A stretch of 64,000 nucleotides of DNA. Origin: a virus. Within the stretch, counting starts at the first letter, position 1. Each line of letters begins with the position of its first letter. The DNA lies in the IMG/VR virus record IMGVR_UViG_3300037851_000500, positions 1 to 64,000 of that record. One strand, 5' to 3'. This document shows, piece after piece, positions 3,876 through 23,993 of this stretch. The notes beneath the pieces were generated by a model. That model saw only the letters and a list, made by a program, of their open reading frames with translations, searched no databases and was not told where the DNA came from. Both the position numbers and the translations under genes were made by a program.

Positions 3876-5483
3876 ATGACTAAATTCTATTATCCAATAC
3901 CAGAAAAAGGATATAGAGCCGAAACATACAATTGCGAGAAATGTGGAATCAGGAACAAACGTGAATTAGAAACACCCAACATGAAACCAGTAATTGGTTC
4001 TAAATATGATGGGTTTTTAATTGTTACTGAAAATCTTACAAAAGAGGATGACCGTAAAGGAATGCCTCTTATGAATAAAAAAGCTGTTGAGTATTTTCGT
4101 TTACCCTGCCTAAAAAATCGTTTTAATATAGTTGATAATGCTGCAATTGTTCCCCTGGTTGGTTGTCAAATTGGTAAAGTCACTGATACTTATGCCCGAT
4201 GTTGCTTTGAAAATTTTGCTAATAAATGGATTACAGAATTAAAACCCAAAGTAATTGTGACCTTGGGGGAATTACCTTTTAAATTTATAATGCATAATGC
4301 CACTAAATTAGGAGCAAAAAAAATCAGAGGTAGAATTATACCTAATTATTATTACAATGCGGTTGTAATGCCAGTATTTAATCCAAATGAAATTGATTCA
4401 TATCATTATCGGGATGCTCTTAAATGGGATTTAAAAAAGATAATCAAAAAATATCAGGGAAAGTATAATAAAAGAAAAGAAGTTAATAATTTTTTAGAGC
4501 GTAGAAAAATCCTTGAAAACATTACAATCAAGGAAATAACCAGTAAAGAAGAATTGGTTGAATTGTTTAAAACATTAAATAGCTTAAAAGAATTTTCTTT
4601 AGATTATGAAACAACTAATACCAAACCATATGATGACGATTTTGAAATTGTTTTAGTTCAATTTGGTATAAAAAGCATAGCATGGTGTATTTATGAAAAC
4701 ACATTTAAACCAAATTGGACATATTTTAAGGAACAAATGAAATCCCTTTTATTAAACCCTAATATAAAAAAGATAATTCAAAACTCTAAATTTGAAGATT
4801 TATGTTCTCGAAGGGTATTTGGAATTGACTATATACGAAATACAGAATGTACCATGTTAGCAACTCATGTAATTGATGAGCGTAGAGGTTGTACCAGTTT
4901 GGATTTTCAAAATTTGGTTAGATTTGGAATTCCAGCCTACAGTGCCAAAGTAAAATCACTTCTTAAAATCAAGGAAGAAGATGATGTAATTGTAAAAACT
5001 AATAGAGTAAAAGAAATTAAAAAAGAGGATCTAATTCAATACGGTGCCCTGGATGTAATTACAACATTTAATAATTGGAAGCTACTTGAAAAAATACTCC
5101 CACAAAAATACCCAAAAGCACAGGAAAATTATGAATTTCTTAAATCTGGACATTGGGCATTTGCTAATATGAGCCAAAGAGGAATCACAATTGATCTAAA
5201 TGAACAACAAAGATTAATTTCTCTCTTTGAAAAAGAAATGGAAAAAATATTAATTAGGATTTTAGAAATACCAGAATTTGCTGAGTTCAATGAGTTTATA
5301 CGAAAAACAAAACACCCTGAGAAAAAATCAATGGAATCCATTAGAGAAAAATTGAGTAAGGTGTCCAATGGAAGAATACGGAATAGACTTCTCAAATCAA
5401 ATGGCGGATCTGACAAATCTGGCAGTTTATCACCTATCAAACGACATAGGCTTCAGGTTATACCTAATAGACCTGGAAGATAA
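3876..5483 (+). CDS. polA: DNA polymerase A, N-terminal part (family-4 UDG-like domain + 3'-5' exonuclease + start of thumb)
   Basis: CEKC and later Cys residues, KPKVIVTLGE (UDG-like); ExoI SLDYETT, ExoII QNSKFE, ExoIII YGALDV; MSQRGITID thumb-base motif. Confidence 0.85.
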   Translation: MTKFYYPIPEKGYRAETYNCEKCGIRNKRELETPNMKPVIGSKYDGFLIVTENLTKEDDRKGMPLMNKKAVEYFRLPCLKNRFNIVDNAAIVPLVGCQIGKVTDTYARCCFENFANKWITELKPKVIVTLGELPFKFIMHNATKLGAKKIRGRIIPNYYYNAVVMPVFNPNEIDSYHYRDALKWDLKKIIKKYQGKYNKRKEVNNFLERRKILENITIKEITSKEELVELFKTLNSLKEFSLDYETTNTKPYDDDFEIVLVQFGIKSIAWCIYENTFKPNWTYFKEQMKSLLLNPNIKKIIQNSKFEDLCSRRVFGIDYIRNTECTMLATHVIDERRGCTSLDFQNLVRFGIPAYSAKVKSLLKIKEEDDVIVKTNRVKEIKKEDLIQYGALDVITTFNNWKLLEKILPQKYPKAQENYEFLKSGHWAFANMSQRGITIDLNEQQRLISLFEKEMEKILIRILEIPEFAEFNEFIRKTKHPEKKSMESIREKLSKVSNGRIRNRLLKSNGGSDKSGSLSPIKRHRLQVIPNRPGR

Positions 5484-5637
5484 AAGGCTGCAACAAGAAA
5501 GAGTTGATATTTTTAATAGAGCAATTAAATCTATTACTGGGGAATATAAAAAGAAAGGGAAAAAATCAAATGGACAAATTACCAAAAGAAGTTTTAGAGA
5601 AAACAGCTTACCTGATAGAAAAATATCATTTAGTTGA
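5368..5637 (+). CDS. Hypothetical protein between the polymerase halves
   Basis: 89-aa ORF, AAGGTG RBS, overlaps both neighbours, ends RKISFS. Confidence 0.55.
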   Translation: MEEYGIDFSNQMADLTNLAVYHLSNDIGFRLYLIDLEDKRLQQERVDIFNRAIKSITGEYKKKGKKSNGQITKRSFRENSLPDRKISFS

Positions 5638-6229
5638 AAACAGGGGAGAAACGAGCATTATTGTTTTAGGCACTACTTTAATATTTAAAAATTTCGTTAT
5701 AAAAGAAATTATGGAAAAATTAGCTCCAATATATATTGCTATGCGTGGTACTCTCCAGCATTTAATGAGAGATATGGATAATTATGAAGGAAAAGACGTT
5801 GTAGAACCATTTATAAAATTATCTGATGCATTTTTTGCGCTATTATTTTTATGTATCAATGTAGAAAAATCCCAATTAGATATTTTTATTAGAAAATTTA
5901 CAAATTTAATGAAAGATGAAATGTTTGACTCAAAATCAGGTAATAAGGATATTTTTGAATCTTTTCAAATTTTTGTAGATTTAATTTGTACTTGTGATTA
6001 TATATTTTACAGAGGAATAGAATTATCAATGTTAATGATGAAAACAATTGAAAGTGGTGATTTAGAACAAATTAAAAATCTACCAAAAATTGTTCCATAT
6101 GACATTATTACAGCTAATTCTAAAGAAGAATTAGAATATAAATTAAAACAAAAGGGGGAAAAGGAAGAAATTAAAAAGCAAGAACAACAATATGATTTAT
6201 CAACAATGAATATAATTGGAGAAGCATAA
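5570..6229 (+). CDS. Hypothetical helical protein between the polymerase halves
   Basis: ORF track 5504-6229; likelier ATG at 5570 after AAGGGA; stop overlaps the ATG of the polymerase C-half (TAATG); no nuclease motifs. Confidence 0.65.
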   Translation: MDKLPKEVLEKTAYLIEKYHLVENRGETSIIVLGTTLIFKNFVIKEIMEKLAPIYIAMRGTLQHLMRDMDNYEGKDVVEPFIKLSDAFFALLFLCINVEKSQLDIFIRKFTNLMKDEMFDSKSGNKDIFESFQIFVDLICTCDYIFYRGIELSMLMMKTIESGDLEQIKNLPKIVPYDIITANSKEELEYKLKQKGEKEEIKKQEQQYDLSTMNIIGEA

Positions 6230-7455
6230 TGCCGGGAATAAAGGATCAAATATATGTAAATTTAAGATCTAACCCACAATTACAGGAATTCTTATTTGAA
6301 TTTCTTAAATTAAAACCTGTACGTGAACAAAATCAAAAGACAGGTAACTTTTCTACTGATGAAGCTGTTTTAACTCATTATGCAGAAAAAGAAAATGTGG
6401 AATTTTGTAAATTACTTTTGTCTTATAGGAAATTAGAAAAAGCAAGAAGTACATATTTAGAGGGCATAAGACGATTTATAGAAAAAAGTGGGTGTATAAT
6501 TCACCCTGATTTATGGCTAAATGTAGCAGAGACATATAGATCAAGCTCAACAGACCCAAATTTCCAAAATCAGCCTAAACACGGTGAAATAATTCCTGGT
6601 GTTAATTGGTCCGTAATTAGAAAGATGTACACTAAATTGGGGCCAAAATGGTTATTTGCAGAATGTGATTATGAGGGGGCGGAAGTAAAATCAGCAGCAA
6701 TGGAATCTCAAGACCAGCAATTAATAGATGATTTAAATAATGACATGGATATGCATTCACATTGGTCCAGGCCATTATTTGGATTACAGGGAATGGAATA
6801 TACCCAAGTAAAAACAGAACATAAAGAGGAACGCTTTTTAACTAAAAATAATTTTACTTTTGCAACCATGTTTGGAGCATCAAATATGAGTGTTGCAGAA
6901 GAAATGCGTAAACAAGAATTTTTTAGAAAATATGTTTATGAAAAGTTTTATAGGCAATCGGCTAAACCCATTGATTGGGAACAATATTTTGTAGAATTTA
7001 GTGAAAAATTAGTATTAGATTGTCAAAATCAATTTTTTGATCGTTATAAAGGATTAAAAAGATTCTATGATGCAATTCTAAAAATATATTGGGAATATGG
7101 TTATGTAGAAAATTTGCTTGGATTTAGACGTAATTACCCTTTAAAAAGAAATGAAATTATTAATTTTAGAATTCAATCAACATCATTTCTTTTGTTATTA
7201 GATTCAATTATTCAAATTGAAAAATGGCTTGAGCGCAATCCAATGAAATCCAGGCCGATTTCTCAAATCCATGATTCAATGGAAAACAACATCTATATTC
7301 CAGAAGCAGGTGAATATATTGAAATGGTAGATTACTTTATGATTAATAAGCCGCATTTACCATTTACGCATAAAATTAAAATGGGGACAGAATGGGAGGT
7401 GGGGCGGAATTGGGAATCTATGTTTGTTATTAAAAATTATAAAATGGCCGCTTGA
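6229..7455 (+). CDS. polA: DNA polymerase A, C-terminal polymerase part
   Basis: NLRSNPQLQEFLF thumb, STDEAVL, TYRSSSTDPNFQNQP, motif A DYEGAE, motif B RFLTKNNFTFATMFG, NFRIQS, motif C QIHDS. Confidence 0.9.
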   Translation: MPGIKDQIYVNLRSNPQLQEFLFEFLKLKPVREQNQKTGNFSTDEAVLTHYAEKENVEFCKLLLSYRKLEKARSTYLEGIRRFIEKSGCIIHPDLWLNVAETYRSSSTDPNFQNQPKHGEIIPGVNWSVIRKMYTKLGPKWLFAECDYEGAEVKSAAMESQDQQLIDDLNNDMDMHSHWSRPLFGLQGMEYTQVKTEHKEERFLTKNNFTFATMFGASNMSVAEEMRKQEFFRKYVYEKFYRQSAKPIDWEQYFVEFSEKLVLDCQNQFFDRYKGLKRFYDAILKIYWEYGYVENLLGFRRNYPLKRNEIINFRIQSTSFLLLLDSIIQIEKWLERNPMKSRPISQIHDSMENNIYIPEAGEYIEMVDYFMINKPHLPFTHKIKMGTEWEVGRNWESMFVIKNYKMAA

Positions 7456-7480
7456 CATTAATTAAAAAAAGAGATAATAT
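7452..7480 (+). promoter_or_regulatory. Sigma70-type promoter for the AAA cluster
   Basis: TTGACA (7452-7457), 17 bp, TAATAT (7475-7480). Confidence 0.65.
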
Positions 7481-7528
7481 CATCCAAGTTAATCCAACTA
7501 ACCCTCAACCAAACGAAAGGAGCAAAAC

Positions 7529-9058
7529 ATGGATCTTACCAATTACCTGCAATCTGGTTATGGCGGTGTGTTTGTGGAAACCAATGAAGTAAAAAGAGCA
7601 GTTAATACTATTAGGGTAAATTCTGGTCTTAATAAAGTTATTTGGAACTGTGTTCAAGGTATTGTCAAAGATTTTACAAATCCTGCCAAAAATATTATGT
7701 CCGACCAAAATGATATTTTGGACAAAGCAAAAGAAATGCATCAAACAATTGTAGTTCTTGAAAATTATGATTTGTTTCTAAATGATGCTGTTATTGTTCA
7801 AACCTTCCTTAACAACTATCCTTTTTATAAAGCCAATCAAGTTTGCCTTGTTATTGTAGGTACAGATAGAAACAAAATTCCAATTTTGATGAAAGAATTA
7901 GTTCCAGTATTAGATTTTAATTTGCCTGGAAATGAGGAAATTACAGAAATAGCTAACAAGATCAGTAAATACAGCAAAGCTGGATTAGATGCTGCTTACA
8001 AGGATAAAAGAATCAGCGAAGAAGATTATAAAAAAGCAGATTTTTCTGTAACAAACAAAATTGTGGAAACCTGTAAGGCTCTTACTGTTGAAGAAATTGA
8101 AAATGTACTTGCTTATTCAGCGAGAACAAATCTTAAATTTGATCGTAATACTATTCTTGAGCGTAAAAGAGATATGTTGCGTAAAACTGGATTTATGGAT
8201 TACTTTGAACCCCAACCAATTGAAGCTCTCGGTGGACTTGATATTTTTAAAGAGTTTATAGAAAGAAGAAAGGAACCATTTGATAACCCCAAATCAATTA
8301 AGCCTAAAATGAAGTCAATACTACTTGTTGGAATTCAAGGAGCAGGTAAGTCACTTGCTGGAAAAGTTTTAAGTTCCATTTTCAATTGGCCCGGAATTAT
8401 ATTTGATGTGGGGGCAGTTAAAGGTGAATACGTTGGGCAAACTGGTAAAAATATGCGAACTGCAACCAAAATCATTGATGCTATTGGTTGTGCAATTGTA
8501 GTTATGGATGAAATGGAAAAAGCATTTGAACAAACTGAATTTGGTGGTGGTAAACAATCTGGTGGTGGTCCAATTGCAGATATGATCGGTCACTTTCTTA
8601 CCTGGAGTCAGGAACGTACTTCTCCAGCTATTCTACTTGCTACTTGTAATAAAATAAATGCACTTCCGCCAGAATTTAAAAGAGCAAGACGTTGGGATCG
8701 CATATTTTTTGTTGATCTACCCAATCCTGATGAAATTAGTAAAATTATTGGAATCAAAAATAAGCAGTATAAATCTACTATTCCCGACAGCAAAGAATTT
8801 TGTTTGCGTCTTTATAATGAGGGGTGGTCTGGTGCAGAAATAGAGCAATTAGCAATAGATTTACATTATGATGATCTTGAAACTGCAATGGGGCAAATTC
8901 CGGTTTTGTACAAGCACAATAAAGATGAAATTGACAGAATCAGGGAAGAAGGTAAAAAATTTACAAGGGCAAATGCTGTTTATAATGAGACTGAAAAATT
9001 TATTGCTGTTGTTAAAAATAATTCTAAAAAGCAGGATAGAAATGTCCAATTTAATTAA
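7529..9058 (+). CDS. Ycf46-like AAA+ ATPase
   Basis: Degenerate N-terminal AAA domain; Walker A GIQGAGKS, Walker B VMDEMEK, ATCN sensor, LPPEFKRARRWDRIFFVDLP, SGAEIEQ. Confidence 0.85.
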   Translation: MDLTNYLQSGYGGVFVETNEVKRAVNTIRVNSGLNKVIWNCVQGIVKDFTNPAKNIMSDQNDILDKAKEMHQTIVVLENYDLFLNDAVIVQTFLNNYPFYKANQVCLVIVGTDRNKIPILMKELVPVLDFNLPGNEEITEIANKISKYSKAGLDAAYKDKRISEEDYKKADFSVTNKIVETCKALTVEEIENVLAYSARTNLKFDRNTILERKRDMLRKTGFMDYFEPQPIEALGGLDIFKEFIERRKEPFDNPKSIKPKMKSILLVGIQGAGKSLAGKVLSSIFNWPGIIFDVGAVKGEYVGQTGKNMRTATKIIDAIGCAIVVMDEMEKAFEQTEFGGGKQSGGGPIADMIGHFLTWSQERTSPAILLATCNKINALPPEFKRARRWDRIFFVDLPNPDEISKIIGIKNKQYKSTIPDSKEFCLRLYNEGWSGAEIEQLAIDLHYDDLETAMGQIPVLYKHNKDEIDRIREEGKKFTRANAVYNETEKFIAVVKNNSKKQDRNVQFN

Positions 9059-9068
9059 AGGGAAAAAC

Positions 9069-9203
9069 ATGAAAACAGCAATGGATAAAATTATGTTCGG
9101 TTTTTATATTGGTGTAGGAATTTATTCTTTTAATTGTTTACTTAACATTATATATAAGATTGGTTATAAATTATATATTTTGTTAAATAGAATTCCAGTA
9201 TAG
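9069..9203 (+). CDS. Small membrane protein
   Basis: AAGGG RBS, MKTAMDKIMFGFYIGVGIYSFNCLL..., 44 aa, hydrophobic. Confidence 0.45.
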   Translation: MKTAMDKIMFGFYIGVGIYSFNCLLNIIYKIGYKLYILLNRIPV

Positions 9204-9209
9204 GGGGAA

Positions 9210-9371
9210 ATGATGAACTTTTATAAAATTGGGTTAATAGTAATACTATTATTTCTAATTAAGATATTTGATATTCCATTTGCCGAAGTATTATCTGATT
9301 TCTTTTTAGTGTGTATATTTGGGATATTTTTTTCAGGAATAAAATCAGTATTAAAATTTATATTTAGATAG
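9210..9371 (+). CDS. Small two-TM membrane protein
   Basis: GGGGG RBS; 53 aa MMNFYKIGLIVILLFLIKIF...; not in the ORF track. Confidence 0.45.
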   Translation: MMNFYKIGLIVILLFLIKIFDIPFAEVLSDFFLVCIFGIFFSGIKSVLKFIFR

Positions 9372-9388
9372 AGAAGGGAGAATAAACG

Positions 9389-9832
9389 ATGAGCCATGTT
9401 GCCACCATCGAATGTGAAATTAAAGATCTTAAAGCTCTAAAATCAGCATGTAACAGACTAAATCTAATATGGAAGGAGGATCAGAAGACCTATAAATGGT
9501 TTGGTAGGCATGTTGGGGATTATCCTATTCCCGATGGATTTACCACAAATGATCTTGGTAAATGTGATCATGCAATAGGTGTTCCTGGGTGTGATTACGA
9601 AATTGGTGTAGTTAAAAATAAAATTGATAATGGTAAAACGCACAAATTACTCTGGGACTTTTGGGATAAAAATCTTAAAACAGCTATGGGTGGTGAAAAA
9701 GCGCCTAAATTAACTCAAATGATTACCATTGAACAATCTAAATTGGCAGCAAGACAAAAAGGATATTCTGTAAAAGAGCTTGTAATGGACGATAGAATCC
9801 GACTTGTTGTTAATATGTGGGGGGGGGAATAA
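9389..9832 (+). CDS. DUF1257/Ycf35-like protein
   Basis: MSHVATIECEIKDLKALKSAC...YEIGVV...LLWDFW...ARQKGYSV; family signature and usual neighbour of Ycf46-like ATPases. Confidence 0.75.
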   Translation: MSHVATIECEIKDLKALKSACNRLNLIWKEDQKTYKWFGRHVGDYPIPDGFTTNDLGKCDHAIGVPGCDYEIGVVKNKIDNGKTHKLLWDFWDKNLKTAMGGEKAPKLTQMITIEQSKLAARQKGYSVKELVMDDRIRLVVNMWGGE

Positions 9833-9834
9833 AA

Positions 9835-10065
9835 ATGAAACAAATTAAACAAATGGTAATTGATGCTTTTAATGATGGTGAAATTCACATTGAAACTCAT
9901 GGATTTACCGGAGAAGCATGTAAAGTAGAAACAGAATTTCTAAAAGAAGCAATTGGTAAGACCATAGCTGAAACCCTTAAACCAATTTTTTATGTTAAAA
10001 CCAGAGAAATTTCTGAGGAAGAAAAAATTAAAGAAGGGAGAATGTTCAAACCAATTTGCGGATAA
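9835..10065 (+). CDS. DUF2997-like protein
   Basis: DGEIHIETHGFTGEACKVETEFLKEAIG...KPIFY; ATG at 9835. Confidence 0.75.
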   Translation: MKQIKQMVIDAFNDGEIHIETHGFTGEACKVETEFLKEAIGKTIAETLKPIFYVKTREISEEEKIKEGRMFKPICG

Positions 10066-10152
10066 AATAAAATGACAACAAAAAGATTAGATATTTCAAT
10101 TCCTATGGAAATTTGAAAAAATAAACAATTAACTAAAGAAAGGAGGATTAAC

Positions 10153-11109
10153 ATGAGCTTTAAATACAAACTGACCAGAAAAGCAGATGGTAAGATTGAA
10201 ATTATTAAAAGCAAAAAGGAAACTAAAAACAAGAATAGTGAAATTAACATTTTTAATCTTGGGACTCTTGTAAATTTTGAAACTCATGCTTGGAGGGCAA
10301 GTATTAGGCTTCCTAAAGAAATTGCAGCTAAAATTTCCACAAAAAAGCAAGAAGATTGGTATAAAGCTACTAAGAACCTAATTGATAGAACTCATTTAAC
10401 TGACATTTATTCTCATTTGACTACTGCATATAATTTGGTTTGTAGTTTAAGCACACCATTTCCAATTAAGGGGATACATTTTATTTCTGCTGATAATGTG
10501 GGGCTTCTTAATAATGGTCTTATTGAGATTAATTCTAAATTGATTTCTGCTGTTGAGGAATTTAGTAAAAATTACCAAAAATATATTAAAGAGGCTAAGG
10601 AAATTTTAGAGCCTGATGGTCTGTTTAATAAAGCCGATTACCCAGATAATATTAAACAACTATTTTCTATTCATTGGAGATTTTTTGATATTTCAATTCC
10701 AGAGCAATTGAGTGATGAATTAAAAGAACAGGAACGTGAACAATTTAATAATATTATGGAGCAAACTAAAAATCTTGGAATTCATGCTCTCCGCAAATCA
10801 TTCCAGGATATTGTTTCTGATCTTGCGGATACCCTTACCGGAAAATTAGACGGTGAGAAAAAACGCATGAATCAAACCAAATTGGATAAAATTTCAGAAT
10901 TTCTTGATTCATTTAAAAGGAAAAATGTATTTAAGGATAAGGATCTTGAAAATATAATTGAAGAAGCAAAGGAATTAGTTACTGGTTTAAATTATAAAGA
11001 CATTGTTAAAGATAAAGAATTGACAGAAGCATTATCTGAAGAAATGAACAGAATTGGTGAAACTCTTAATGGTATGGTAGAAACTTATGAGCGTAAAATC
11101 AGTTTTTAA
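10153..11109 (+). CDS. DUF3150-like helical protein
   Basis: Strong RBS; TKNLID, PFPIKGIHFI, FNKADYP, helical C-terminus ending RKISF; context next to AAA/DUF1257/DUF2997. Confidence 0.55.
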   Translation: MSFKYKLTRKADGKIEIIKSKKETKNKNSEINIFNLGTLVNFETHAWRASIRLPKEIAAKISTKKQEDWYKATKNLIDRTHLTDIYSHLTTAYNLVCSLSTPFPIKGIHFISADNVGLLNNGLIEINSKLISAVEEFSKNYQKYIKEAKEILEPDGLFNKADYPDNIKQLFSIHWRFFDISIPEQLSDELKEQEREQFNNIMEQTKNLGIHALRKSFQDIVSDLADTLTGKLDGEKKRMNQTKLDKISEFLDSFKRKNVFKDKDLENIIEEAKELVTGLNYKDIVKDKELTEALSEEMNRIGETLNGMVETYERKISF

Positions 11110-11423: not shown

Positions 11424-11804
11424 ATGAATATAACAGAACAATTAATTATTACATCAGCAATACTCTTATTTGTTGCATTTATATCTTATTTAATTTGTAA
11501 AAAGTGGTTTTGGAATTATGAGGGGGGACTTAAAGAAATTGATCGTCTTAAACAAATAAATAACCCAGTATGGCCCGCACCAGGACCACCTCCACCACCA
11601 CCTGTACCTAAAACAATTAATGAACACAGAGTAAATATTAATCTTACTCCTATACCCGGCCATGATTATGATCAGATTCGTAAATTATGGAAAAATAAGT
11701 ATTTTACATATAAAACTAAAATTCTTTGGTTAGAGGATGTTTCCTCTAAAATAGAAAAAGAAATAAAACCAATTGAAAGAAAAATAACTTTTAATAAGGA
11801 ATAA
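11424..11804 (+). CDS. Membrane-anchored poly-proline protein
   Basis: N-terminal TM helix, PAPGPPPPPPVP, ends RKITFNKE. Confidence 0.6.
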   Translation: MNITEQLIITSAILLFVAFISYLICKKWFWNYEGGLKEIDRLKQINNPVWPAPGPPPPPPVPKTINEHRVNINLTPIPGHDYDQIRKLWKNKYFTYKTKILWLEDVSSKIEKEIKPIERKITFNKE

Positions 11805-11808: not shown

Positions 11809-12264
11809 ATGCTTGATCATAAAGAATCAGAAGATGATTTTACAATTAATAGATTCAAATTAGAAGAAGAAGCTGAAAGACAACCCGGATTAATGAGGCA
11901 TTATACTAAAAAATTATCAATTTGGTCATCTAAAGTAAAGGATCTTAAAAGAAAATTAGAATATACACAAGCTGCATGTGCAGAAATTATCAGAAACAAT
12001 CCAAAAGATTATGGAATTAAAAAAGATTCGGATAAAGTAGTTTACGCTTTAGCTTTAGAAGAACCGGATTATATAGATGCTCACAATGAGTATATACATG
12101 CTCTCCAACAGGAAGGATATTATGAATCAGCAGCACAAACTATGAAACAAAAGGGATCAATGATTAAAGAATTGGTAAGTCTTTGGTTAAATGATTATTA
12201 TGCAACGCCAATAGTTAGAAAGGGGGGATCAAAGCATAAATTAAGAGTAGTTGAAGATGATTAA
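11809..12264 (+). CDS. UvsY-like recombination mediator
   Basis: FTINRFKLEEEAERQPGL... coiled-coil of about 150 aa directly before SSB and RecA. Confidence 0.55.
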   Translation: MLDHKESEDDFTINRFKLEEEAERQPGLMRHYTKKLSIWSSKVKDLKRKLEYTQAACAEIIRNNPKDYGIKKDSDKVVYALALEEPDYIDAHNEYIHALQQEGYYESAAQTMKQKGSMIKELVSLWLNDYYATPIVRKGGSKHKLRVVEDD

Positions 12265-12295: not shown

Positions 12296-13471
12296 ATGGT
12301 TGATTTCAGCAAATTGCGTAACAAACTACAGGCAAATCCAAATCCAGGGAACAAAGGCGTAGATATTCGTTCACGTTTTCAAAAAAGATCAGAACAGACT
12401 CTTGAAACAACTTATTTGGAAAAGGATAAAAGATCCAAAGCTGGATCTTTAGGAAAATCTATTTTTAAGAAAGATCTATTGGAAAAATTTAATTTTACTG
12501 AAGTTGTAATTAGAGCAGGAACATATTTTTTTGATCTACTTCCTTTAAGTTTTGATGCTTCTGCTAAATATTACCGTGAGCTTCAAGTACATTTTGGAGT
12601 CGGTTTCTCTCAAGATGCGTTTATTTGTATTCACAGGTATAAATCAGAAAGATGTTATCGGTGTGAAGTTCAACAAAAACTTTATAGAGAAAATAATAAA
12701 GTCACTGATGAAATTAAAGCACTTTATCCATCTGACCGTGTAATTTACTTGGTGCTTGATAGAACTGCTGAATTAGCTAATGGGGAATCCCCCAATTTGC
12801 GTATTCAAGTTTGGAATGCACCTAAAAAGAAGGTACATAATGAAATTCACACCAGAACCAGGGATAAACTGACCCATAAAAATCTCGATATTTCTGATCT
12901 TCAAATTGGTGGGGAAGGTAGGCACGTAGGCTTTGAAGTTGAAATACAAAAAAATTTCCCACTATACAAAGGTTTTGATTTGTATAAACGAGATTCACCT
13001 GTTCCTGATAATGTAGTACTTAGCCTTGCGGAATTTATTGAAGAAGCTGAAGCAAATGGGTTCACTGGAGAAAGAACAATTGATTATTTGCTTCATATCC
13101 CTGAATACGACGAATTAAAAGAATCAATGGCAACAGAATCAATGCAGGAAGAAGAAGAAAATCAACAATCATCTGAAAATGGAGCAAGTTTAACTCCTAC
13201 TCAACAGAGGCTTGCAGCACTAAAAAGCAAAAGTGCAGCACCCCAAGAAAAATCACAAGATGAACTTTTGGCAGAAATCGTGGGAAAGTATGAAAGGCTA
13301 CAAGCCGAATTAGAAGCAATGAACGTGCTTAAATGGAAATCATGGTTAAATGGGGAAGGTAAAAATTATAAAGAGGATTGTTCTTCATTAGCTAAAGAAG
13401 AAGCAATTCCCCTGATTATTGAAGATCTAATGGGAAATGAGGTTCAAAAATTGGGGCTTAAATTAGAGTAA
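12296..13471 (+). CDS. gp32-like single-stranded DNA-binding protein with C-terminal HEH-like domain
   Basis: VHFGVG..FICI..RCYRCE Zn motif, IQVWNAP, DISD..EGRHVGF; acidic linker; position between UvsY-like and RecA genes. Confidence 0.65.
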   Translation: MVDFSKLRNKLQANPNPGNKGVDIRSRFQKRSEQTLETTYLEKDKRSKAGSLGKSIFKKDLLEKFNFTEVVIRAGTYFFDLLPLSFDASAKYYRELQVHFGVGFSQDAFICIHRYKSERCYRCEVQQKLYRENNKVTDEIKALYPSDRVIYLVLDRTAELANGESPNLRIQVWNAPKKKVHNEIHTRTRDKLTHKNLDISDLQIGGEGRHVGFEVEIQKNFPLYKGFDLYKRDSPVPDNVVLSLAEFIEEAEANGFTGERTIDYLLHIPEYDELKESMATESMQEEEENQQSSENGASLTPTQQRLAALKSKSAAPQEKSQDELLAEIVGKYERLQAELEAMNVLKWKSWLNGEGKNYKEDCSSLAKEEAIPLIIEDLMGNEVQKLGLKLE

Positions 13472-13485: not shown

Positions 13486-13572
13486 GGCCGGGTGGCAGAA
13501 TTGGCATATGCAAAGGACTTAAAATCCTTCGCCCGAAAGGGATTGAGGGTTCAAATCCCTCCCCGGCTACCA
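13486..13572 (+). tRNA. trnL: tRNA-Leu(UAA)
   Basis: Acceptor GGCCGGG/CCCGGCT, anticodon arm AAGGA-CTTAAAA-TCCTT, long variable arm, T-arm GAGGG-TTCAAAT-CCCTC, discriminator A, encoded CCA. Confidence 0.95.
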
Positions 13573-13588: not shown

Positions 13589-13753
13589 ATGGAATTCCAT
13601 CTAAGTAAAACAGGAATTTTAATTTTAGGTATTTTTTTAGGATGGGAACTTTTTAAATTATTTAATATATTAAAAAGAAAAATGTATAGAAACTATATTA
13701 GGAGAAAGTATGAAAAGGGTGAAACTAAAATTAATACCCACTTCAGCGATTAA
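13589..13753 (+). CDS. Small membrane protein
   Basis: AAGGA RBS, 54 aa MEFHLSKTGILILGIFLGWELF...; overlaps the recA start. Confidence 0.4.
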   Translation: MEFHLSKTGILILGIFLGWELFKLFNILKRKMYRNYIRRKYEKGETKINTHFSD

Positions 13754-14873
13754 TAGAAGTAAATCAAAATTGGAATTGGCTAAGGAAAAATTATCTAAAG
13801 TAAATCTTATTCCAGAAGAAAAGCAATTAACTAAATTTATAAATTCAGGATCATGGGGATTAAATCTCGCTTTAACAAACGATATTAGATATGGCTATCC
13901 CATTGGAAGGGTAATCAACCCAGTAGGAGATTACTCAGTAGGCAAAACTTTAATGGCTTGTGAAGCTATAAACAGTATTTATTACATTGAACATTTAATG
14001 AAAAAGAAAAAAATAAAAATGTATTATGATGAACCAGAATATGCATTTGATTTTGATTTGGGGTTTAAATTCAATATGCCCTTGGAATTAATTTATGGAC
14101 TTAGAGAAAGATTGCCAACACATAAACCAGATAAAAAAGATTTTAAAACAAGTAAAACTGTTGAGGATCTTTATAATAATTTAGATTTTATAACAAAACA
14201 CGAAAGCAATGATTATGATATTATCATTTATATTGTTGATTCATTAGATGCTCTTAGAGATGCAAGGGAAATCACTCACCTTGAAGAAAAAGGAATTGAA
14301 AAACAAGATTATGGCGGTGGAAAGGCAAGAGTATTATCTCAACTATTTAGAAACTGTATTGAGGGAGTTTATAATTCAAATATTATTCTTTTTATTGTTT
14401 CCCAAATCAGAACAAACTTTGGAGTTACATTTGGAAATAAATACACCAGAGCAGGTGGTAAGGCTTTAGATCATTATGCTTCACAAATATTCTGGATGAG
14501 AGAAGTTGGTAAAATTACTCATCCTAAAACTAAAATGAACCAGGGAATGGAAGTTGAAGTACAAATTACTAAAAACAAATTAGGAGATCGTTATAATAGG
14601 CTCAATTTTAATATTATAAACGGTCATGGGGTAGATAACATTGGATCGGCTATAGATTTTTTAAAAGAATATAAAATCATTGAACAAAATGGGGCATATT
14701 TAAAATATCAGGGAGAAAATATTTTAAGAGATAATTTAATTGATCTTGCTTTAACCGATGATTCTGTTGCAGAAGATATTAGAAATCAATGGCAAAATAC
14801 TTGGTTGAATTTAGTTGAAATGAGCAAACCTAATAGACCTGCGAAATGGTCAGAAGGAAGGAAAATTGTCTAA
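13710..14873 (+). CDS. recA: RecA/UvsX-like recombinase
   Basis: GYPIGRV, Walker A GDYSVGKT, IVDSLDAL, KARVLSQ, SQIR, GGKALDHYAS, KNK. Confidence 0.92.
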   Translation: MKRVKLKLIPTSAINRSKSKLELAKEKLSKVNLIPEEKQLTKFINSGSWGLNLALTNDIRYGYPIGRVINPVGDYSVGKTLMACEAINSIYYIEHLMKKKKIKMYYDEPEYAFDFDLGFKFNMPLELIYGLRERLPTHKPDKKDFKTSKTVEDLYNNLDFITKHESNDYDIIIYIVDSLDALRDAREITHLEEKGIEKQDYGGGKARVLSQLFRNCIEGVYNSNIILFIVSQIRTNFGVTFGNKYTRAGGKALDHYASQIFWMREVGKITHPKTKMNQGMEVEVQITKNKLGDRYNRLNFNIINGHGVDNIGSAIDFLKEYKIIEQNGAYLKYQGENILRDNLIDLALTDDSVAEDIRNQWQNTWLNLVEMSKPNRPAKWSEGRKIV

Positions 14874-17292: not shown

Positions 17293-17293
17293 A

Positions 17294-17818
17294 ATGTCTG
17301 GGTTTATTCCACATGCTATTGAACGATTTTTTGAAAGAACTGATCTGGAAGTTACCCGAAATCAAATTATTAAAGCAATTGAAAACGGAAACATAGTTTA
17401 TGCCAAACGTCTTACAGCCAGTAAATCTCTTGCTTATGCTTTAGTCGGGGAAAACGTAATTAAACTCATTGTTTCAAAAAATACTAAAAAGGTTATGAGT
17501 ATTATTCCCTGGAAATCAGTTTTTAAATACACTGTTACAACTAATATTCACGAAGATATTTATAAAATAATTGTTTTTCCAGATTGTTATATGGAAACTG
17601 GATGCCCCCATGCACTTACAAAAATATATAAAATTCATAGTGATGGGGCAAAGGAACCCATTCCCTATAATCATCCAAATTTTAATAGTTTATTTAATGG
17701 GGCCTGGGAAATTGTTAAAAATGTTGAAAAGCATAAAATTATTGTAAAGGAGAGAAATTCTGGAAATGAAAAGATTAAAACTGAAATGTATAGAATCAGA
17801 GGAGAAGCCACAGCTTAA
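17294..17818 (+). CDS. Hypothetical protein, N-terminus resembling DUF4258/RelE-like fold
   Basis: PHAIERFFER...IIKAIENG pattern. Confidence 0.4.
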   Translation: MSGFIPHAIERFFERTDLEVTRNQIIKAIENGNIVYAKRLTASKSLAYALVGENVIKLIVSKNTKKVMSIIPWKSVFKYTVTTNIHEDIYKIIVFPDCYMETGCPHALTKIYKIHSDGAKEPIPYNHPNFNSLFNGAWEIVKNVEKHKIIVKERNSGNEKIKTEMYRIRGEATA

Positions 17819-18122
17819 AGAAGACTATTTTAAAAAATTTGATATAGAGTTAAAAAAGTATTGTTTATTACCTAAAAATAAAAATGTATTACCTTATAAA
17901 TGGTATCACACTAAAGAACAATGGCCTCCAGATATTAATGAAGAAATTTTAGTTTTTGAAGATGGTAATTTTAAAATTGAAAGATCCTTTGTTGCTTTAC
18001 AAAATCTTATATATAGACTTAAAGTTATAAACATAGATATGTTTACTGATTACTATTGGATGAGAATAAAAACACCATCAGGAAATCCCCAATATGAAGA
18101 TAACCGACTTAGCATTAAATAA
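17766..18122 (+). CDS. Hypothetical protein (DUF551-like segment)
   Basis: AAGGAG RBS; WYHTKEQWPP..EEILVF...YWM. Confidence 0.5.
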   Translation: MKRLKLKCIESEEKPQLKEDYFKKFDIELKKYCLLPKNKNVLPYKWYHTKEQWPPDINEEILVFEDGNFKIERSFVALQNLIYRLKVINIDMFTDYYWMRIKTPSGNPQYEDNRLSIK

Positions 18123-19152: not shown

Positions 19153-19153
19153 T

Positions 19154-20125
19154 ATGGATGTTTTAATAATTGGGGATATTCATTTATCTGGTAAAAATCC
19201 ACCTAATAGGATAGATGATGTAACAGAAATTCAATTTAATAAAATTGAAGAAATTGTAAACATAGCAAATACAACCGATACACCCATCATTTGTACCGGG
19301 GATATTTTTCATACCCCCATTGTTTCAAACCAAATACTTTCCAAATTTGGTAAATTAATAAACAAATTAAAAAGGGAATTCTATTTCGTATTTGGAAACC
19401 ACGATCTTCAATACCATGATATAATTAGAGTAGATAGAACATCCATTGGAGTAATACGATCTAATAATTATAAAATTAGACATATATCAGAATTTCACAA
19501 GTTTTATGGAAGTCGAATGAGGTGGGCTTATATTGATTACGGTGCGGCATTTACCAATAATTATTTAAATACTGAATTTAATAAAGCAAATTTTCTACTG
19601 TCTCATAAAGCAATAGTTAATGACAATTTAATTAATACGGAATCATGGATAGCTAATGATGTTAATTTTTGTCAATCTGTTTCTAATTTTGAAGGAATGT
19701 TTAAACTTATAATATGCGGCCATTGGCATAAACCATATATATATAGATATAAAAATTCATTGATAATCAATCCTGGTCCCGTTATTCGCAGACAAATTAC
19801 AGAAAAAGAAATTCCAAGAATAATTTACATTGATTTAGAAACTTTAAAATATGATGAAATACACTTATCTACAGCCCCACCAACCGAATTAGTTTTAAGA
19901 GAAGAATCAATTGATAAAGAATTAAGACCTGTTGAAGATAGAATAATCCATTTTATTAATAACATTAAGCATAAAAAGGGTTTTGCACAAAAACTTAAAT
20001 TCAAAGATGCTTTAAATGTACTTATTAATGATGCAGGTACAGACAAAAAAGTAGTTAATAAATTAAAAGAAATAATGTCAATTCTTTCTGAAAGAAAGGG
20101 TGAAGAATTAAATGTTGACAATTAA
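19154..20125 (+). CDS. sbcD: Mre11/SbcD metallophosphoesterase nuclease
   Basis: GDIH, GDIFH, GNHD, LSH, GHWH, NPG. Confidence 0.9.
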   Translation: MDVLIIGDIHLSGKNPPNRIDDVTEIQFNKIEEIVNIANTTDTPIICTGDIFHTPIVSNQILSKFGKLINKLKREFYFVFGNHDLQYHDIIRVDRTSIGVIRSNNYKIRHISEFHKFYGSRMRWAYIDYGAAFTNNYLNTEFNKANFLLSHKAIVNDNLINTESWIANDVNFCQSVSNFEGMFKLIICGHWHKPYIYRYKNSLIINPGPVIRRQITEKEIPRIIYIDLETLKYDEIHLSTAPPTELVLREESIDKELRPVEDRIIHFINNIKHKKGFAQKLKFKDALNVLINDAGTDKKVVNKLKEIMSILSERKGEELNVDN

Positions 20126-20360
20126 TGATCTTGAACAAATAAAAAATGAATTAGAAGCCCATACTAAAAGAAGAATACAATTAGAAACAGAGGAAAAATT
20201 AATAAAAAAAGATATGAAAGAAAAATTTGGTATAGATACAGTTGATGATGCTGGTGTTCTTATAGAGGAATTACAAGTTGAAGCAGGTAAAATAAAAAAT
20301 ACTATTGAAACAAAAAAAGAAAAACTAATTGAATCCATGAAAAAAGACGGTTTATTATGA
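20112..20360 (+). CDS. Small coiled-coil protein, probable third piece of the Rad50-like complex
   Basis: 82-aa heptad-rich ORF overlapping both neighbours. Confidence 0.6.
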   Translation: MLTINDLEQIKNELEAHTKRRIQLETEEKLIKKDMKEKFGIDTVDDAGVLIEELQVEAGKIKNTIETKKEKLIESMKKDGLL

Positions 20361-20968
20361 ACACACAAAACATACATAACCTTTTAATACAAAAACAAAG
20401 TCAGTTAGAGTGGGAACAAAATTCTTATAAAGAAACATTAAGTTTAATACAGCAAGAAAAAGATGAAATAGAGTTATTAGAAAAATGTAAATCATTGGTT
20501 ATGGAATTAGGTAAATCTACCCAGAAACAAATCAAACAATATATAGATGATACCGTCACTCTGGCTCTGCAACCTGTCTATGGACATTTATACAAATTCG
20601 TTGTAAAATTTGAGTATAACAAACGTGGTCGATCTGAGGTTTATTTTTTTATTGACAAGGGGGGTAAGTTATTAGAATTACGGAAAAATACCACTGGGGG
20701 AGGGGTGGTTGACCTTTGTGCTTTTTCATTAAGAATGATCCTTTGGACCTTAGATGACTCAAAAAAAGCGCCACCAATTATGATTATGGATGAACCTTTT
20801 AAAAATGTTTCCTGGAAATTTTTACCAGATGTTACTAAAGTTGTTAAAAAAATATCTGAACTTTTAGAAATTCAATTTATAATTGCTACACATAAACACA
20901 ATAAAGCAATTATAGAAACGGCTGATACAGCATATTATATTGGTGGAGAACCGGATGATGAATATTAG
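20357..20968 (+). CDS. sbcC: Rad50/SbcC C-terminal half
   Basis: Short coiled coil, signature-like TGGGVVD, Walker B IMDEPF, H-loop IATH. Confidence 0.85.
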   Translation: MNTQNIHNLLIQKQSQLEWEQNSYKETLSLIQQEKDEIELLEKCKSLVMELGKSTQKQIKQYIDDTVTLALQPVYGHLYKFVVKFEYNKRGRSEVYFFIDKGGKLLELRKNTTGGGVVDLCAFSLRMILWTLDDSKKAPPIMIMDEPFKNVSWKFLPDVTKVVKKISELLEIQFIIATHKHNKAIIETADTAYYIGGEPDDEY

Positions 20969-21506
20969 AAAAATAATGTATATGACTAAAGATGAAGTTC
21001 TCAGCATACCAGAAAAAGATTTACCCCTTGCTGTTTTAAGCTCCTCTGCTGCAAATATCTTTGCATTTGGAATAATCAATATTAGAAAATCAATTTATAA
21101 TCATTTTATGTGGATGCATAAACCTGGATTTTTTGCATCTCAAGATCTGTTTTATTCTGAAGTTCCAGCAGAAAAATATTTAAAATTTGATAACAGATTA
21201 AAATTTTGGTATAACCCAAATTGGGAAATATATGAAAAAGAAGCTATTAAACATGAAATACAAAGATGGTTAAATAAACCAAAATTCAGTACAAGGTATG
21301 ATTGGATGGCAATATTAGGACAAGCATTAAATTTAGTTTGGATTCAAAATCCTATAACAAGAATATGTTCAGATTATGGATCTATTTTAAGAGAAAGTGG
21401 TGTAGACCCCGAATATAATTTAAAGAACCCCGCCCCAGATCAAGTAGATAATTGGTTTAGTAAAAATATAAAATATAATATTTACGGAAGATACGCAGGA
21501 GAATAA
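20955..21506 (+). CDS. Permuted papain-like (YiiX/NlpC-P60) peptidase/amidase
   Basis: His before Cys: YNHF...YDWMAILG...ICSDY...P; likely ATG 20955. Confidence 0.6.
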   Translation: MMNIRKIMYMTKDEVLSIPEKDLPLAVLSSSAANIFAFGIINIRKSIYNHFMWMHKPGFFASQDLFYSEVPAEKYLKFDNRLKFWYNPNWEIYEKEAIKHEIQRWLNKPKFSTRYDWMAILGQALNLVWIQNPITRICSDYGSILRESGVDPEYNLKNPAPDQVDNWFSKNIKYNIYGRYAGE

Positions 21507-21597
21507 AAATGGACACGCTAATTCTATATTCCTGGATTACTATGCTGTTTATCTTGTTACTCCCACTATTTATAACACTTACAGGAGGAATTTTGAA

Positions 21598-22116
21598 ATG
21601 CAATGTCCAGTACATGGAACGACAATCTCACCAGACATATGCATTAAAAGACAGGAGATTGCAAAGAGGGGGTATCTAACTAAAAAAACTGTAACTAAAG
21701 AAAAAGAAGAAAAAATATTTCAATCAGAATTACCTGATTCTTTTAACTTTTGTTGTAATTGTACCACTGGTAAAATGGTAAGATTATTTCCTGGTAGGTA
21801 TATAAAAAAAGATTGTCTGTTGTTAATAAAAGAACAAACAAAAATATTAAAAGAAAGGGGGTATGTTTTCAAACAAGATTCTGATTTATTAAGTTTAATA
21901 ATAGCTGCACACAATGAAGGTTTAAACCCAGAGGAAAGAACAGTTTTAATAGATTACATTGCAGAAGTATCAAAAAAAATGGTAATGGAGAGGAGGATCA
22001 ATGGAAAAACGATCAGGGTGTTATCAACTACAGGGTGCAGAATTGCTAGATACCTTAGAAAACAAAGGGGTGCGAAACGAAATAAACAGAACAATTCTTC
22101 ATCCATTGGGGCTTGA
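21598..22116 (+). CDS. Cys-rich hypothetical protein
   Basis: AGGAGG RBS; CPVH..C..CCNC. Confidence 0.6.
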   Translation: MQCPVHGTTISPDICIKRQEIAKRGYLTKKTVTKEKEEKIFQSELPDSFNFCCNCTTGKMVRLFPGRYIKKDCLLLIKEQTKILKERGYVFKQDSDLLSLIIAAHNEGLNPEERTVLIDYIAEVSKKMVMERRINGKTIRVLSTTGCRIARYLRKQRGAKRNKQNNSSSIGA

Positions 22117-22615
22117 ATTAGATTATGGTGAAGGTGAATTAATTTTAATGTCTACAGATGCCCCTCAAGGAATACTTACAGAAAGAATTGATAATTTTAA
22201 AAGAAAAGCCTTTCTCCAATTTTCTGGAAAACAGCACCAAAGAAGACTTGAACATTGTGGTTTTATAATTCAAACTAAACCTATATTTAATGCAGATAAA
22301 ATAGATGGTCCTATTGCAGATCCAAGAACACAAAGATTGGGGGCTATTATTGGTCTATTGGAACAGGTTTTTCATCTATGCAAAAGACGTTTAATGGAAA
22401 ACAGTTCAGAAAAAGATGAAGAATATTGGAAAAAGATAGAAGAATCAGAATTAATTAAAGGTATGTATAAATCAATTGAGAAAGGAGATTTTATAAATCT
22501 AATTAACTTTGCTGCTATTTTAATTTCTAAAGATAATCTTGATAAAGTTATTTCAAAATTAGAAATCACCTATCCTCCTGAAAAATTCAAAAAAGTAAAA
22601 AGGGATAACAGATGA
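22001..22615 (+). CDS. Hypothetical protein
   Basis: GGAGG RBS; EINRTILHPLGLEL motif; helical C-terminal domain. Confidence 0.6.
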   Translation: MEKRSGCYQLQGAELLDTLENKGVRNEINRTILHPLGLELDYGEGELILMSTDAPQGILTERIDNFKRKAFLQFSGKQHQRRLEHCGFIIQTKPIFNADKIDGPIADPRTQRLGAIIGLLEQVFHLCKRRLMENSSEKDEEYWKKIEESELIKGMYKSIEKGDFINLINFAAILISKDNLDKVISKLEITYPPEKFKKVKRDNR

Positions 22616-23100
22616 AATTAAAACTTCAGGTAAAAGGAATAAAAGCAAAATCACAAATAATAAAAAAGAGTGTAAAAAACGATAATTTTGAAGAAATGAG
22701 TCGTTTTTTATCTCCACTACCTGAAGATTTACCATTATTAAAAACACACTATCCTGGGGAATGGTTTCAAAGGATAGATAAACAATCTGTTGTTCAAAGA
22801 TGGAAAGATGATGCCGGAAATGAACAACACAATTTTATGTTTTACCCATCTACATCAATGATAGAAGAATTAAATCAGATGGAAATTGATTGGCGCGTAA
22901 GAGATAATTATTTTTTATTACTTTGGAAACGTTTACAAAAATTTGGAATAGCACGGTATAAAGATATTCCCTCCAATGTAACTGCATATGATTTTGAAAA
23001 ATATTTAAATAAAGAAAAACCAATAGTAAAATTTAATTTAAAAATAAAAAATGAATGTAAAACACATTGTACCCGACTTAAATTAAAGGTAAAAAAATGA
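22612..23100 (+). CDS. Hypothetical protein with KLKL-type motifs at both ends
   Basis: MKLKLQVK...RLKLKVKK*; ATGA overlaps on both sides. Confidence 0.6.
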   Translation: MKLKLQVKGIKAKSQIIKKSVKNDNFEEMSRFLSPLPEDLPLLKTHYPGEWFQRIDKQSVVQRWKDDAGNEQHNFMFYPSTSMIEELNQMEIDWRVRDNYFLLLWKRLQKFGIARYKDIPSNVTAYDFEKYLNKEKPIVKFNLKIKNECKTHCTRLKLKVKK

Positions 23101-23993
23101 GACATAAATTAATTCCATTAGAATTAACTCAAGCACCAGATTATCCAGCATTATTATTAGATGGTAAATATTTAGCTTATCGAACACAGTACAGTAAAAC
23201 TGGAAGTCTCAGCTATTCTGGTATTAAAACAGGATTGTACTATGGATTTTTTAACACAGTTCAACAACTAATGAATAAATTTTATCCTATATACCTCTGT
23301 ATTATGTGGGATTCTCCTGGGAAAAAATCTATTAGGAAAAAAGAATTTCCTGGGTATAAAAACAGGGATAATTGGGATAAGATGACTGAAGAACAAAAAA
23401 GAGATAAAATTGAATTTAATGATGCCTATGAAAATTTAATAGTTATTTGTGAAGAATTAGGATTTGCTTCTTATATCATGGATGGGTATGAAGCTGATGA
23501 TCTTTTTGCTTTGTGGATTAACAGATACCCATCTTATAAACCAATAATTATAATCACCCGCGATGAAGATATGTTTCAACTGCTTTCAGATAGTATTTCA
23601 ATTTATAATCCTGATGATAAAAAAATAAAAGATTTAAAATGGTTTAAAAAAGAATATAAAATAGACCCCAATGTATGGGCAAATGTAAAAGCAATGGGTG
23701 GGTGTAAATCAGATACAGTTCCAGGACTTCCAGGTGTAGGGGAAGAAACTGCTTTAAAATATTATCGTAATGAACATGTAAAAAAGAAAGGAATAGACTC
23801 AGAAGAAAATATTGCCTTAGTAAATAAATATTATAATTTAACTGTACTTCCACATCCAAATCTAAAAAATTTCCATTTACCTTTTAAATCAACCAAAGTA
23901 GATAAAGATAAATTCTTTTCTTTTTGCCAGGAAATGGGATTCAGATCTTTTATAGATGATCTGGATAAATTTGAACCATTATTTGATCTATAG
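23097..23993 (+). CDS. 5'-3' exonuclease / flap endonuclease (T4 RNase H/T5 D15-like)
   Basis: LLDG, WDS, RK..FPGYK.NR, YEADD, RDEDMFQL, GCKSDTVPGLPGVGEETA. Confidence 0.92.
   Translation: MRHKLIPLELTQAPDYPALLLDGKYLAYRTQYSKTGSLSYSGIKTGLYYGFFNTVQQLMNKFYPIYLCIMWDSPGKKSIRKKEFPGYKNRDNWDKMTEEQKRDKIEFNDAYENLIVICEELGFASYIMDGYEADDLFALWINRYPSYKPIIIITRDEDMFQLLSDSISIYNPDDKKIKDLKWFKKEYKIDPNVWANVKAMGGCKSDTVPGLPGVGEETALKYYRNEHVKKKGIDSEENIALVNKYYNLTVLPHPNLKNFHLPFKSTKVDKDKFFSFCQEMGFRSFIDDLDKFEPLFDL

Follow-up and report, generated by a model that had tools for sequence, protein, structure and literature searches.

A basic-hydrophobic terminal peptide shared by replication and recombination proteins of an uncultured phage clade, a candidate docking tag

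The replication arm and its terminal peptides

The present analysis concerns a short basic-hydrophobic peptide, hereafter called the tag, which stands at the free end of unrelated replication and recombination proteins encoded in one viral genome, the IMG/VR record IMGVR_UViG_3300037851_000500. The record comprises 112,111 bp with a GC content of about 30% and is complete according to CheckV; the window, i.e., the whole stretch of DNA analysed, is its first 64 kb. The genes of replication and recombination occupy the plus strand from position 1 to 31.6 kb, and the virion genes follow on the minus strand. The replication arm encodes, as revealed by Pfam comparisons, a family-A DNA polymerase split into an exonuclease half (PolA-N) and a polymerase half, an AAA ATPase, a DUF3150 protein, RecA and the 5′-3′ exonuclease FEN (Table 1), as well as a PD-(D/E)XK nuclease, a split SbcC/SbcD pair, and DnaB and SNF2 helicases with inteins. 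A UvsY-like protein and a predicted single-stranded DNA-binding protein (SSB) are encoded in the same arm.

A sequence-only reading of the window had listed eight such peptides, and all eight are indeed there. The consensus it proposed, written as the regular expression [KR][HVL][KR][LI].[VLIC], gives 8 matches in the 20,676 residues of the called open reading frames (ORFs), each of them at most 25 residues from a protein end and each in the plus-strand replication arm. The match at the C-end of ORF 2099-3769 was missing from that list, and the FEN N-end MRHKLIP, which was on it, escapes the expression solely through its final Pro. The statement that the motif is not seen at the ends of tail proteins is borne out, since the expression matches none of the window's 32 structural ORFs and none of the 48 proteins encoded by the virion arm of the entire genome. 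Looser matches in the virion arm are signal-peptide-like N-termini composed of MKK and hydrophobic residues.

Lys/Leu-rich termini are to be expected in a genome of 30% GC: lysine makes up 10.8% of the replication arm, and N-termini often begin with MK. The motif could thus be an artefact of chance and composition. Shuffling of whole proteins of the replication arm predicts 0.24 terminal and 1.2 interior matches. When residues are shuffled within each 25-residue terminal segment, so that the composition is kept, 0.36 matches are expected against 7 observed, and none of 5000 shuffles reaches 7. In 28 distant phage loci of low GC content (<0.36), comprising 493 proteins, the ratio of terminal to interior rates is 0.9–1.1 for the clade-derived expression given below. 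Composition therefore does not explain the motif, as the distant low-GC phages lack end enrichment. These results, together with the synonymous codon changes described below, refute the chance explanation, whose probability we regard as negligible.

Two further searches gave no usable model. The unsupervised expectation-maximisation motif search in terminal windows produced an over-fitted, diffuse model with a log-likelihood not above that of shuffles, and the output of a reduced-alphabet enumeration was dominated by signal-peptide and transmembrane N-termini.

Table 1. Genes and tag sites of the replication arm. "Added" marks sites that the sequence-only reading had not listed.
Feature	Position	Strand	Basis or sequences in orthologues	Remark
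Split family-A polymerase, exonuclease half (PolA-N)	3876-5483	+	Pfam	
PolA-N tag KRHRLQVIP, end of low-complexity C-terminal tail	5439..5465	+	..KPIRRKLSF or ..KIKRKIQF past a variable linker	
Split family-A polymerase, polymerase half	6229-7455	+	Pfam	
Ycf46-like type-II AAA ATPase	7529..9058	+	Pfam AAA; homologues named Ycf46	tag carrier and rival reader candidate
AAA ATPase tag DRNVQFN, C-end	9035..9055	+	..KPRKLKL[KNQ] or ..KDRKMAFN	added
147-aa protein (9389-9832), C-end DRIRLVVN	9791..9814	+	..EKRRLVINV	added
DUF3150 protein	10153-11109	+	Pfam	
DUF3150 tag ERKISF-COOH	11089..11106	+	[YF]KRKL[TS]F, codons vary synonymously	added
Small membrane protein (ORF 11424-11804), near-C-end tag ERKITF, tail ERKITFNKE	11775..11792	+		added
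UvsY-like protein (ORF 11809-12264), tag KHKLRVV in C-terminal extension	12232..12252	+	..KPKRIxLKED	
gp32-like SSB, 391 aa, between UvsY-like gene and RecA	12296..13471	+	Fold and zinc ligands	
SSB tag-like C-terminal tail KLGLKLE	13445-13468	+		added
RecA	13710-14873	+	Pfam	
RecA/UvsX-like N-end tag KRVKLKLIP	13713..13739	+	ATG after AGGAG; Pfam RecA match begins later	
ORF 17294-17818, KHKIIVK	17729..17749	+		doubtful
ORF 17766-18122, N-end tag KRLKLKCI	17769..17792	+	MKRLKLK(A/E/V); some with second copy KPKRLSL	
ORF 22612-23100, N-end tag KLKLQVK	22615..22635	+	Positional orthologues upstream of FEN: MARLSLQTK or MPKINLQIK	
ORF 22612-23100, C-end tag RLKLKVKK-COOH	23074..23097	+	..RVKLNLRLS, ..RPKRMKLECKD, ..KPKRMQLECND	
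FEN (5′-3′ exonuclease)	23097-23993	+	Pfam	
FEN N-end tag RHKLIP	23100..23117	+	MQRLKLIPN, MPKLKLHW, ..RRRLIPQ; Pfam nuclease domain from residue 18	

Conservation of the tag in related phages

The blastn and tblastn searches failed to find a close relative of the virus among isolated phages. An alignment-based scan of IMG/VR yielded 25 syntenic loci (L001–L025), and an SSB-based scan added two more (L089 and L094); a single-sequence RecA scan of viral contigs gave no match, and the alignment-based scans succeeded. Across the 25 loci the tag recurs in the corresponding proteins, each time at the corresponding end; these are PolA-N, the AAA ATPase, the DUF3150 protein, the UvsY-like protein, the 147-aa protein, RecA, ORF 17766, ORF 22612 and FEN. 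The claim of a protein-level terminal linear motif in non-homologous replication and recombination proteins is supported. Representative ends are ..SPIKRHRLQVIPNRPGR, ..ETYERKISF and MKRVKLKLIPTS in the window and ..KPIRRKLSF and ..KPRKLKLN in relatives.

The form of the tag in the clade is basic-basic-hydrophobic-x-[L/F], as in ..KRKLSF-COOH, ..KPRKLKLN-COOH and M-KRLKLK.., with a length of 5–8 residues that often runs on as alternating basic and hydrophobic residues. The basic/hydrophobic terminal pattern of the earlier consensus stands, but that consensus was too narrow, since the clade form takes in the C-terminal "RKISF" flavour as well. The orthologues of PolA-N end in RRKLSF and the window copy in KRHRLQVIP, one flavour replacing the other by lineage; therefore, the two flavours form one functional class. 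The narrower expression finds 8 matches in the 25 related loci, 7 of them terminal. The clade-derived expression, [KR][KR][LIVMF].[LF], gives 122 terminal and 59 interior matches in the close loci, a rate 18-fold higher at the ends (p 1e-76, orthologues not being independent), and shows no end enrichment in distant phages containing RecA or the SSB.

The tag is also specific to the clade within single protein families. About 50 RecA homologues with 52–75% identity were collected, and nearly all open with M-x-[KR]-[IVL]-x-L-[KQE]; the core M-x-[KR]-[IVL]-x-L occurs in 37 of 47 homologues from the clade vs. 11 of 62 outgroup RecAs. The core of the AAA ATPase tag was found in 33 of 46 clade homologues and in 3 of 57 cellular Ycf46 proteins. 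SbcD is tagged in L026 and L094. For the small membrane protein, L001 and L002 neighbours end in ..PKRKITY, ..QRKITF and ..LKRKITFK.

At conserved positions of the tag the codons vary synonymously (Arg CGT/CGC/CGA/AGA/AGG, Leu TTA/CTA/CTT/CTG/TTG, Phe TTT/TTC), so that it is the peptide, rather than the DNA, that is under selection. A repeat or regulatory signal of the DNA at gene junctions was considered and rejected: the residues stay the same although different codons are used from site to site and from orthologue to orthologue. An overlap with the ribosome-binding site of the next gene is seen for just two C-terminal instances. The fit of R-K-L-S/T-F to a basophilic kinase consensus was examined too; as a unifying explanation it fails, since most tags contain neither Ser nor Thr.

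The sequence-only reading placed the tags of PolA, RecA and the exonuclease outside the catalytic fold, and this is supported: the Pfam domains begin after the tag or stop before it, and AlphaFold2 (AF2) models give the tag residues of the AAA ATPase (501–509, a free tail) and of the SSB a predicted local distance difference test score (pLDDT) below 50. The family profile of the 151-aa UvsY-like protein finds its best PDB matches in T4 UvsY (4zwt/4zws, E 0.014–0.018), nearly full-length and covering residues 4–118, which leaves the tag outside the UvsY fold. The linker that precedes the tag is variable, both in length and in sequence, in the PolA-N, AAA ATPase and UvsY-like tails, yet the tag itself persists. 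A short conserved core in disordered flanks of variable length, recurring in non-homologous proteins above the composition expectation, is what characterises a short linear motif (SLiM), and both properties are present here. The motif thus survived comparison with the composition background, with structural proteins and with homologues, and it is more extensive than first listed.

Individual sites differ in quality. The KHKIIVK of ORF 17294-17818 is present, but it lies 23 residues from the end and the C-ends of its orthologues are not conserved, so that this listed instance is doubtful. The KRVKILIEV of ORF 2099-3769 is conserved, although it is a weak instance and probably part of a fold helix. 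The tag of the 147-aa protein directly abuts conserved sequence and may therefore belong to the fold as its terminal beta-strand instead of being a free tag.

Both halves of the polymerase show additional features. About 30 residues before its tag, the PolA-N tail (5331-5420) contains another conserved basic-hydrophobic stretch, RIRNRLLKSNGG (..KKLKSLSIKMKGD in relatives), which may represent a further tag copy. The polymerase half of most relatives (e.g., L010:3118-4332 and L022:3402-4625) has a tag-like C-end, ..MKR[VI]K[ITL]N, and this end is lost in the window, where the protein finishes with ..FVIKNYKMAA.

In the lineage of the window and L001, the first basic position has changed to Asp or Glu in four proteins, i.e., the DUF3150 protein, the AAA ATPase, the 147-aa protein and the small membrane protein. 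The terminal, disordered, conserved and clade-specific character of the tag, the exchange of flavours between orthologues and this shift in four proteins point to a docking function. We consider it fairly probable that the tag is a clade-specific short linear docking motif, placed on flexible ends of ten or more unrelated proteins of replication and recombination and directed to one shared partner. All tagged proteins would then plug their tags into one common acidic receptor, and the polymerase, flap nuclease, recombinase, mediator, AAA ATPase and accessory proteins would thereby gather at one place on the phage DNA.

The same lineage bears on direct binding of the tags to nucleic acid, where they would act as small tethers to the DNA of an AT-rich genome, like KRKTS in the trough of T4 gp32 for single-stranded DNA (ssDNA). 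The net positive charge of the tags and their restriction to DNA-handling proteins agree with such a role. In T4 gp32, the N-terminal LAST peptide (Lys-Arg-Lys-Ser-Thr, residues 3–7) touches the acidic part of the neighbouring core, which leads to cooperative ssDNA binding, and the LAST sequence is found in both the N-domain and the DNA trough (PMC12893549). However, ERKISF and DRNVQF of the window lineage have lost their net charge and kept the hydrophobic pattern, conservation is strict at the hydrophobic positions and at the terminal Phe, and the tags occur strictly at protein ends. Direct DNA binding is, consequently, a distinctly unlikely function of the tags.

The position of the RecA tag at the extreme N-end, before a short helix and the ..FIDSGSW.. 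core, suggests another partner. The inter-subunit contact of RecA-family proteins sits at that N-terminal region, and the tag might copy the N-terminal polymerisation strand of RecA, with clients docking on the recombinase core as BRC repeats dock on Rad51. The tagging of the UvsY-like mediator and of the SSB would agree with this, but the polymerase, FEN, the AAA ATPase and a membrane protein are odd clients for RecA, and such mimicry seems highly improbable.

Candidate receptors of the tag

ORF 12296-13471 is annotated in neither Pfam nor PHROG and lacks a sequence match in the PDB, and no gp32 match was found at the level of sequence. Its AF2 model (pLDDT 78.8) retrieves gp32 of phages RB69 and T4 (2a1k, 1gpc, 8gme) as the top six Foldseek matches, with probability 1.0 and E down to 6.6e-6. 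A His-Cys3 site, H99/C111/C120/C123, is invariant in 23 sequences; its spacing was compared with that of the zinc ligands His64, Cys77, Cys87 and Cys90 of T4 gp32. By its predicted fold and zinc ligands, the protein is a T4 gp32-type SSB. Alongside the UvsY-like protein and RecA/UvsX, it completes a T4-type UvsY/gp32/UvsX trio in the phage. A tRNA-Leu(UAA) gene is located between the SSB and RecA genes, at 13486-13572.

The SSB is composed of a disordered basic N-terminal peptide, a Gly-rich linker, a Zn-containing OB core, an acidic linker, an acidic four-helix domain (residues ~318–385) and a C-tail. The N-terminal 22–44 residues have a net charge of +3 to +9 and are disordered; they read SLQDRLKN[KR]KKL.. 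in most relatives and FSKLRNKLQ in the window. Charge and AF2 disorder thus show the basic N-terminal peptide and acidic C-terminal region of gp32-type proteins. The four-helix C-terminal domain, with a net charge of −10 to −12, occurs in the tag-bearing lineages only and is missing from distant gp32-like SSBs encoded beside RecA. Comparison of its sequence with PDB gave coiled-coil noise only.

The tagged set resembles the protein partners of gp32. The proteins known to bind T4 gp32 include the polymerase, RNase H/FEN, UvsX, UvsY and an Mre11-like nuclease, and the tagged proteins comprise the polymerase, FEN/RNase H, the UvsX-like and UvsY-like proteins and, in L026 and L094, SbcD. Moreover, the charges of tag and domain fall together in three lineages: that of the SSB domain goes from about −11 to −8 and −6, while the mean charge of the tags goes from +3.2 to +2.3 and +0.5–1.3. 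Based on the match of the tagged set with the gp32 interactome, the SSB's own tag-like peptide, the co-occurrence of the acidic domain with the tag and the parallel charges, the phage's own SSB is the leading candidate for the receptor; the support is circumstantial, and we give this identification somewhat less than an even chance. If it is correct, the clients would dock on SSB-coated ssDNA.

The acidic C-domain of T4 gp32 recruits partner proteins (PMC12893549). The clade tag has much in common with the LAST peptide: both are short, basic and located at a disordered terminus, a gp32-type SSB is involved, and the tag [FY]KRKL[ST]F and the SSB N-end [KR]KKL[TI] are similar to LAST. The receptor proposed here, an acidic SSB surface, would be the same too. 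In T4, though, the peptide is known on gp32 alone, whereas here it is carried by at least ten other proteins, at either end, with obligatory hydrophobic residues. It is conceivable, if doubtful, that the clients copy the cooperativity peptide of the SSB, inserting a LAST-like end into the acidic site normally taken by the N-terminus of the neighbouring SSB. This site might be the clade-specific acidic C-terminal domain, and the arrangement would be a "reverse SSB interactome", with the motif on the clients and a folded reader on the SSB.

Several observations weigh against docking on the SSB or against the extent of the tagged set. The co-variation of charges involves three lineages, and the Spearman correlation over all loci is not significant. 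The SSB of the window lineage itself ends in the tag-like KLGLKLE, a feature equally compatible with a client and with a hub. Single-chain AF2 leaves the SSB's own N-terminal peptide and C-tail undocked on the SSB, and it does not place the tag of the AAA ATPase on the AAA ATPase either; with both proteins' own tags unplaced, docking in cis gives no pointer to the receptor. In the 147-aa protein and ORF 2099, the supposed tag may simply be a strand or helix at the end of the fold. Finally, the Ycf46-like AAA cluster is as clade-specific as the C-terminal domain of the SSB, so that co-occurrence cannot separate the two receptor candidates.

This last point leads to the strongest rival, according to which the tags are handles for a protein-threading AAA+ enzyme, either the phage's own Cdc48/Rix7-like Ycf46 ATPase or the host ClpX, that would pull clients off DNA or turn them over. 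The AF2 model of the phage ATPase (pLDDT 88) matches Rix7, Cdc48 and p97 across D1 and D2 in Foldseek; from sequence and fold, D1 is degenerate, D2 is of the active type and the pore loop YVG is intact. A type-II AAA ATPase with such a loop in the same module, restricted to tag-bearing lineages, would be well suited to the role, the tags are disordered ends, and recognition of either free end is generally typical of AAA+ substrates. ClpX grips the basic C-terminal tail ..RRKKAI of the MuA transposase. As in MuA, a DNA-transaction protein has a free end in which hydrophobic residues follow a basic cluster, and an AAA+ enzyme is encoded nearby; unlike there, no protease partner is seen beside the AAA gene, and the AAA ATPase is itself tagged. 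Its C-end has one of the most widely conserved tags, which weakens the rival, as it fits docking better than self-unfolding. A threading handle is, on balance, unlikely. In some relatives, the AAA gene holds an intein (homologues of ~780 aa, PF14890).

A processivity factor was another hub suggested by the sequence-only reading. No clamp or processivity factor of the phage is detectable: PF00712, PF02768, PF09116 and PF00705 have no match in the 112-kb genome. With no clamp of its own detectable, the phage could use variant sliding-clamp-binding motifs for the beta clamp of the host. Like the tag, the clamp motifs (bacterial QL[SD]LF/QLxLxL and the gp45-binding tails of T4 gp43, gp33 and gp55) are terminal peptides with alternating hydrophobic residues in non-homologous replication proteins; polymerases, nucleases and repair proteins unrelated to one another have them at the N- or the C-end. 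Both the x-hydrophobic-x-L-x-hydrophobic pattern of the tag and its endings KLKLIP/RLQVIP/HKLIP are reminiscent of QLxLxL and the MutL-type QxxLxP. The hydrophobic residues at positions 2, 4 and 5/6 of the clamp motif are present in RLKLKV, KLKLIP and KRIKLKV and absent in ..KRINLKED and ..KLKLN; many tags, such as the latter two, lack the final Phe/Leu position. The tag differs in having no Gln and in being strongly basic: the defining Gln at position 1 is replaced by Lys, Arg or His in every window instance and in the orthologues. RecA, the SSB, the UvsY-like protein, the AAA ATPase and a membrane protein would be unusual clamp clients. A role as clamp motifs is, it seems, very unlikely.

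RecA and the SSB also have another peptide in common, S-[LI]-x-[DQ]-R-[LI]-x-x-[KR]. It comes after the tag in RecA (13710-13830; SLRDRLK in relatives), and the SSB contains it both in its opening SLQDRLK (12296-12340) and again in the linker as SSLRQRLRQK (~13140-13250). It resembles the MIM1-type amphipathic helices of ESCRT proteins. In distant gp32-like SSBs (L027–L080), the C-end consists of an acidic stretch and the same helix-like peptide (..SRLESLRNRRRS, ..ALKRKLRERVNS). The C-ends of the SSBs of relatives are similar to the bacterial SSB C-terminal tail (SSB-Ct): ..EEDDLPF in L089, ..GDDIPY in L021 and ..EADINI in most. The DnaB-like helicase ends, at 27340-27376, in acidic residues closed by a Phe (..NEEGEAGEDF), similar to the tail of T7 gp4.

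Possible functional meaning of the tag

Searches of PHROGs and NCBIfam assigned no function to the tagged ORFans, and nothing relevant was found in the literature on Ycf46/DUF1257/DUF2997, DUF3150 and phage SLiMs. A weak match to a Kyanoviridae Gp96 domain (L127:11705-12523, genome 110305-111126; 27.0 bits vs. the curated cut-off of 27) and the Ycf46-type genes are hints of a cyanobacterial host. The early arm also contains a gene of the caspase family (Peptidase_C14, E 4e-27; L126:14023-14880, genome 93723-94583). Since such enzymes often cleave after Arg or Lys, a link between this gene and the basic tags is conceivable.

That shared terminal peptides wire phage replisomes is already known. 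The acidic C-tails of T7 gp2.5 and gp4, whose docking sites on gp5 are basic patches, and the SSB-Ct of bacteria (..DDDIPF) are examples in which one terminal peptide connects several replication proteins. The present case differs in its inverted polarity, as it is the clients, and not the hub, that carry the shared, basic tag. What is new here is a basic-hydrophobic peptide, carried at either end by a large and partly uncharacterised set of clients in an uncultured clade. Compared with the clamp motifs, too, the client set is unusual and no phage clamp gene was found.

If the proposed docking is true, it would add a further docking code to those of phage replication, borne by about a dozen client proteins and with a polarity opposite to that of SSB-Ct and the acidic tails of T7. 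The tag would then be a handle with which unknown proteins, namely DUF3150, the Ycf46-like AAA cluster, the small membrane protein and several ORFans, may be assigned to the machinery of replication and recombination. Should the gp32-like SSB prove to be the receptor, the structurally unresolved contact of gp32 cooperativity would be linked to the recruitment of partner proteins.

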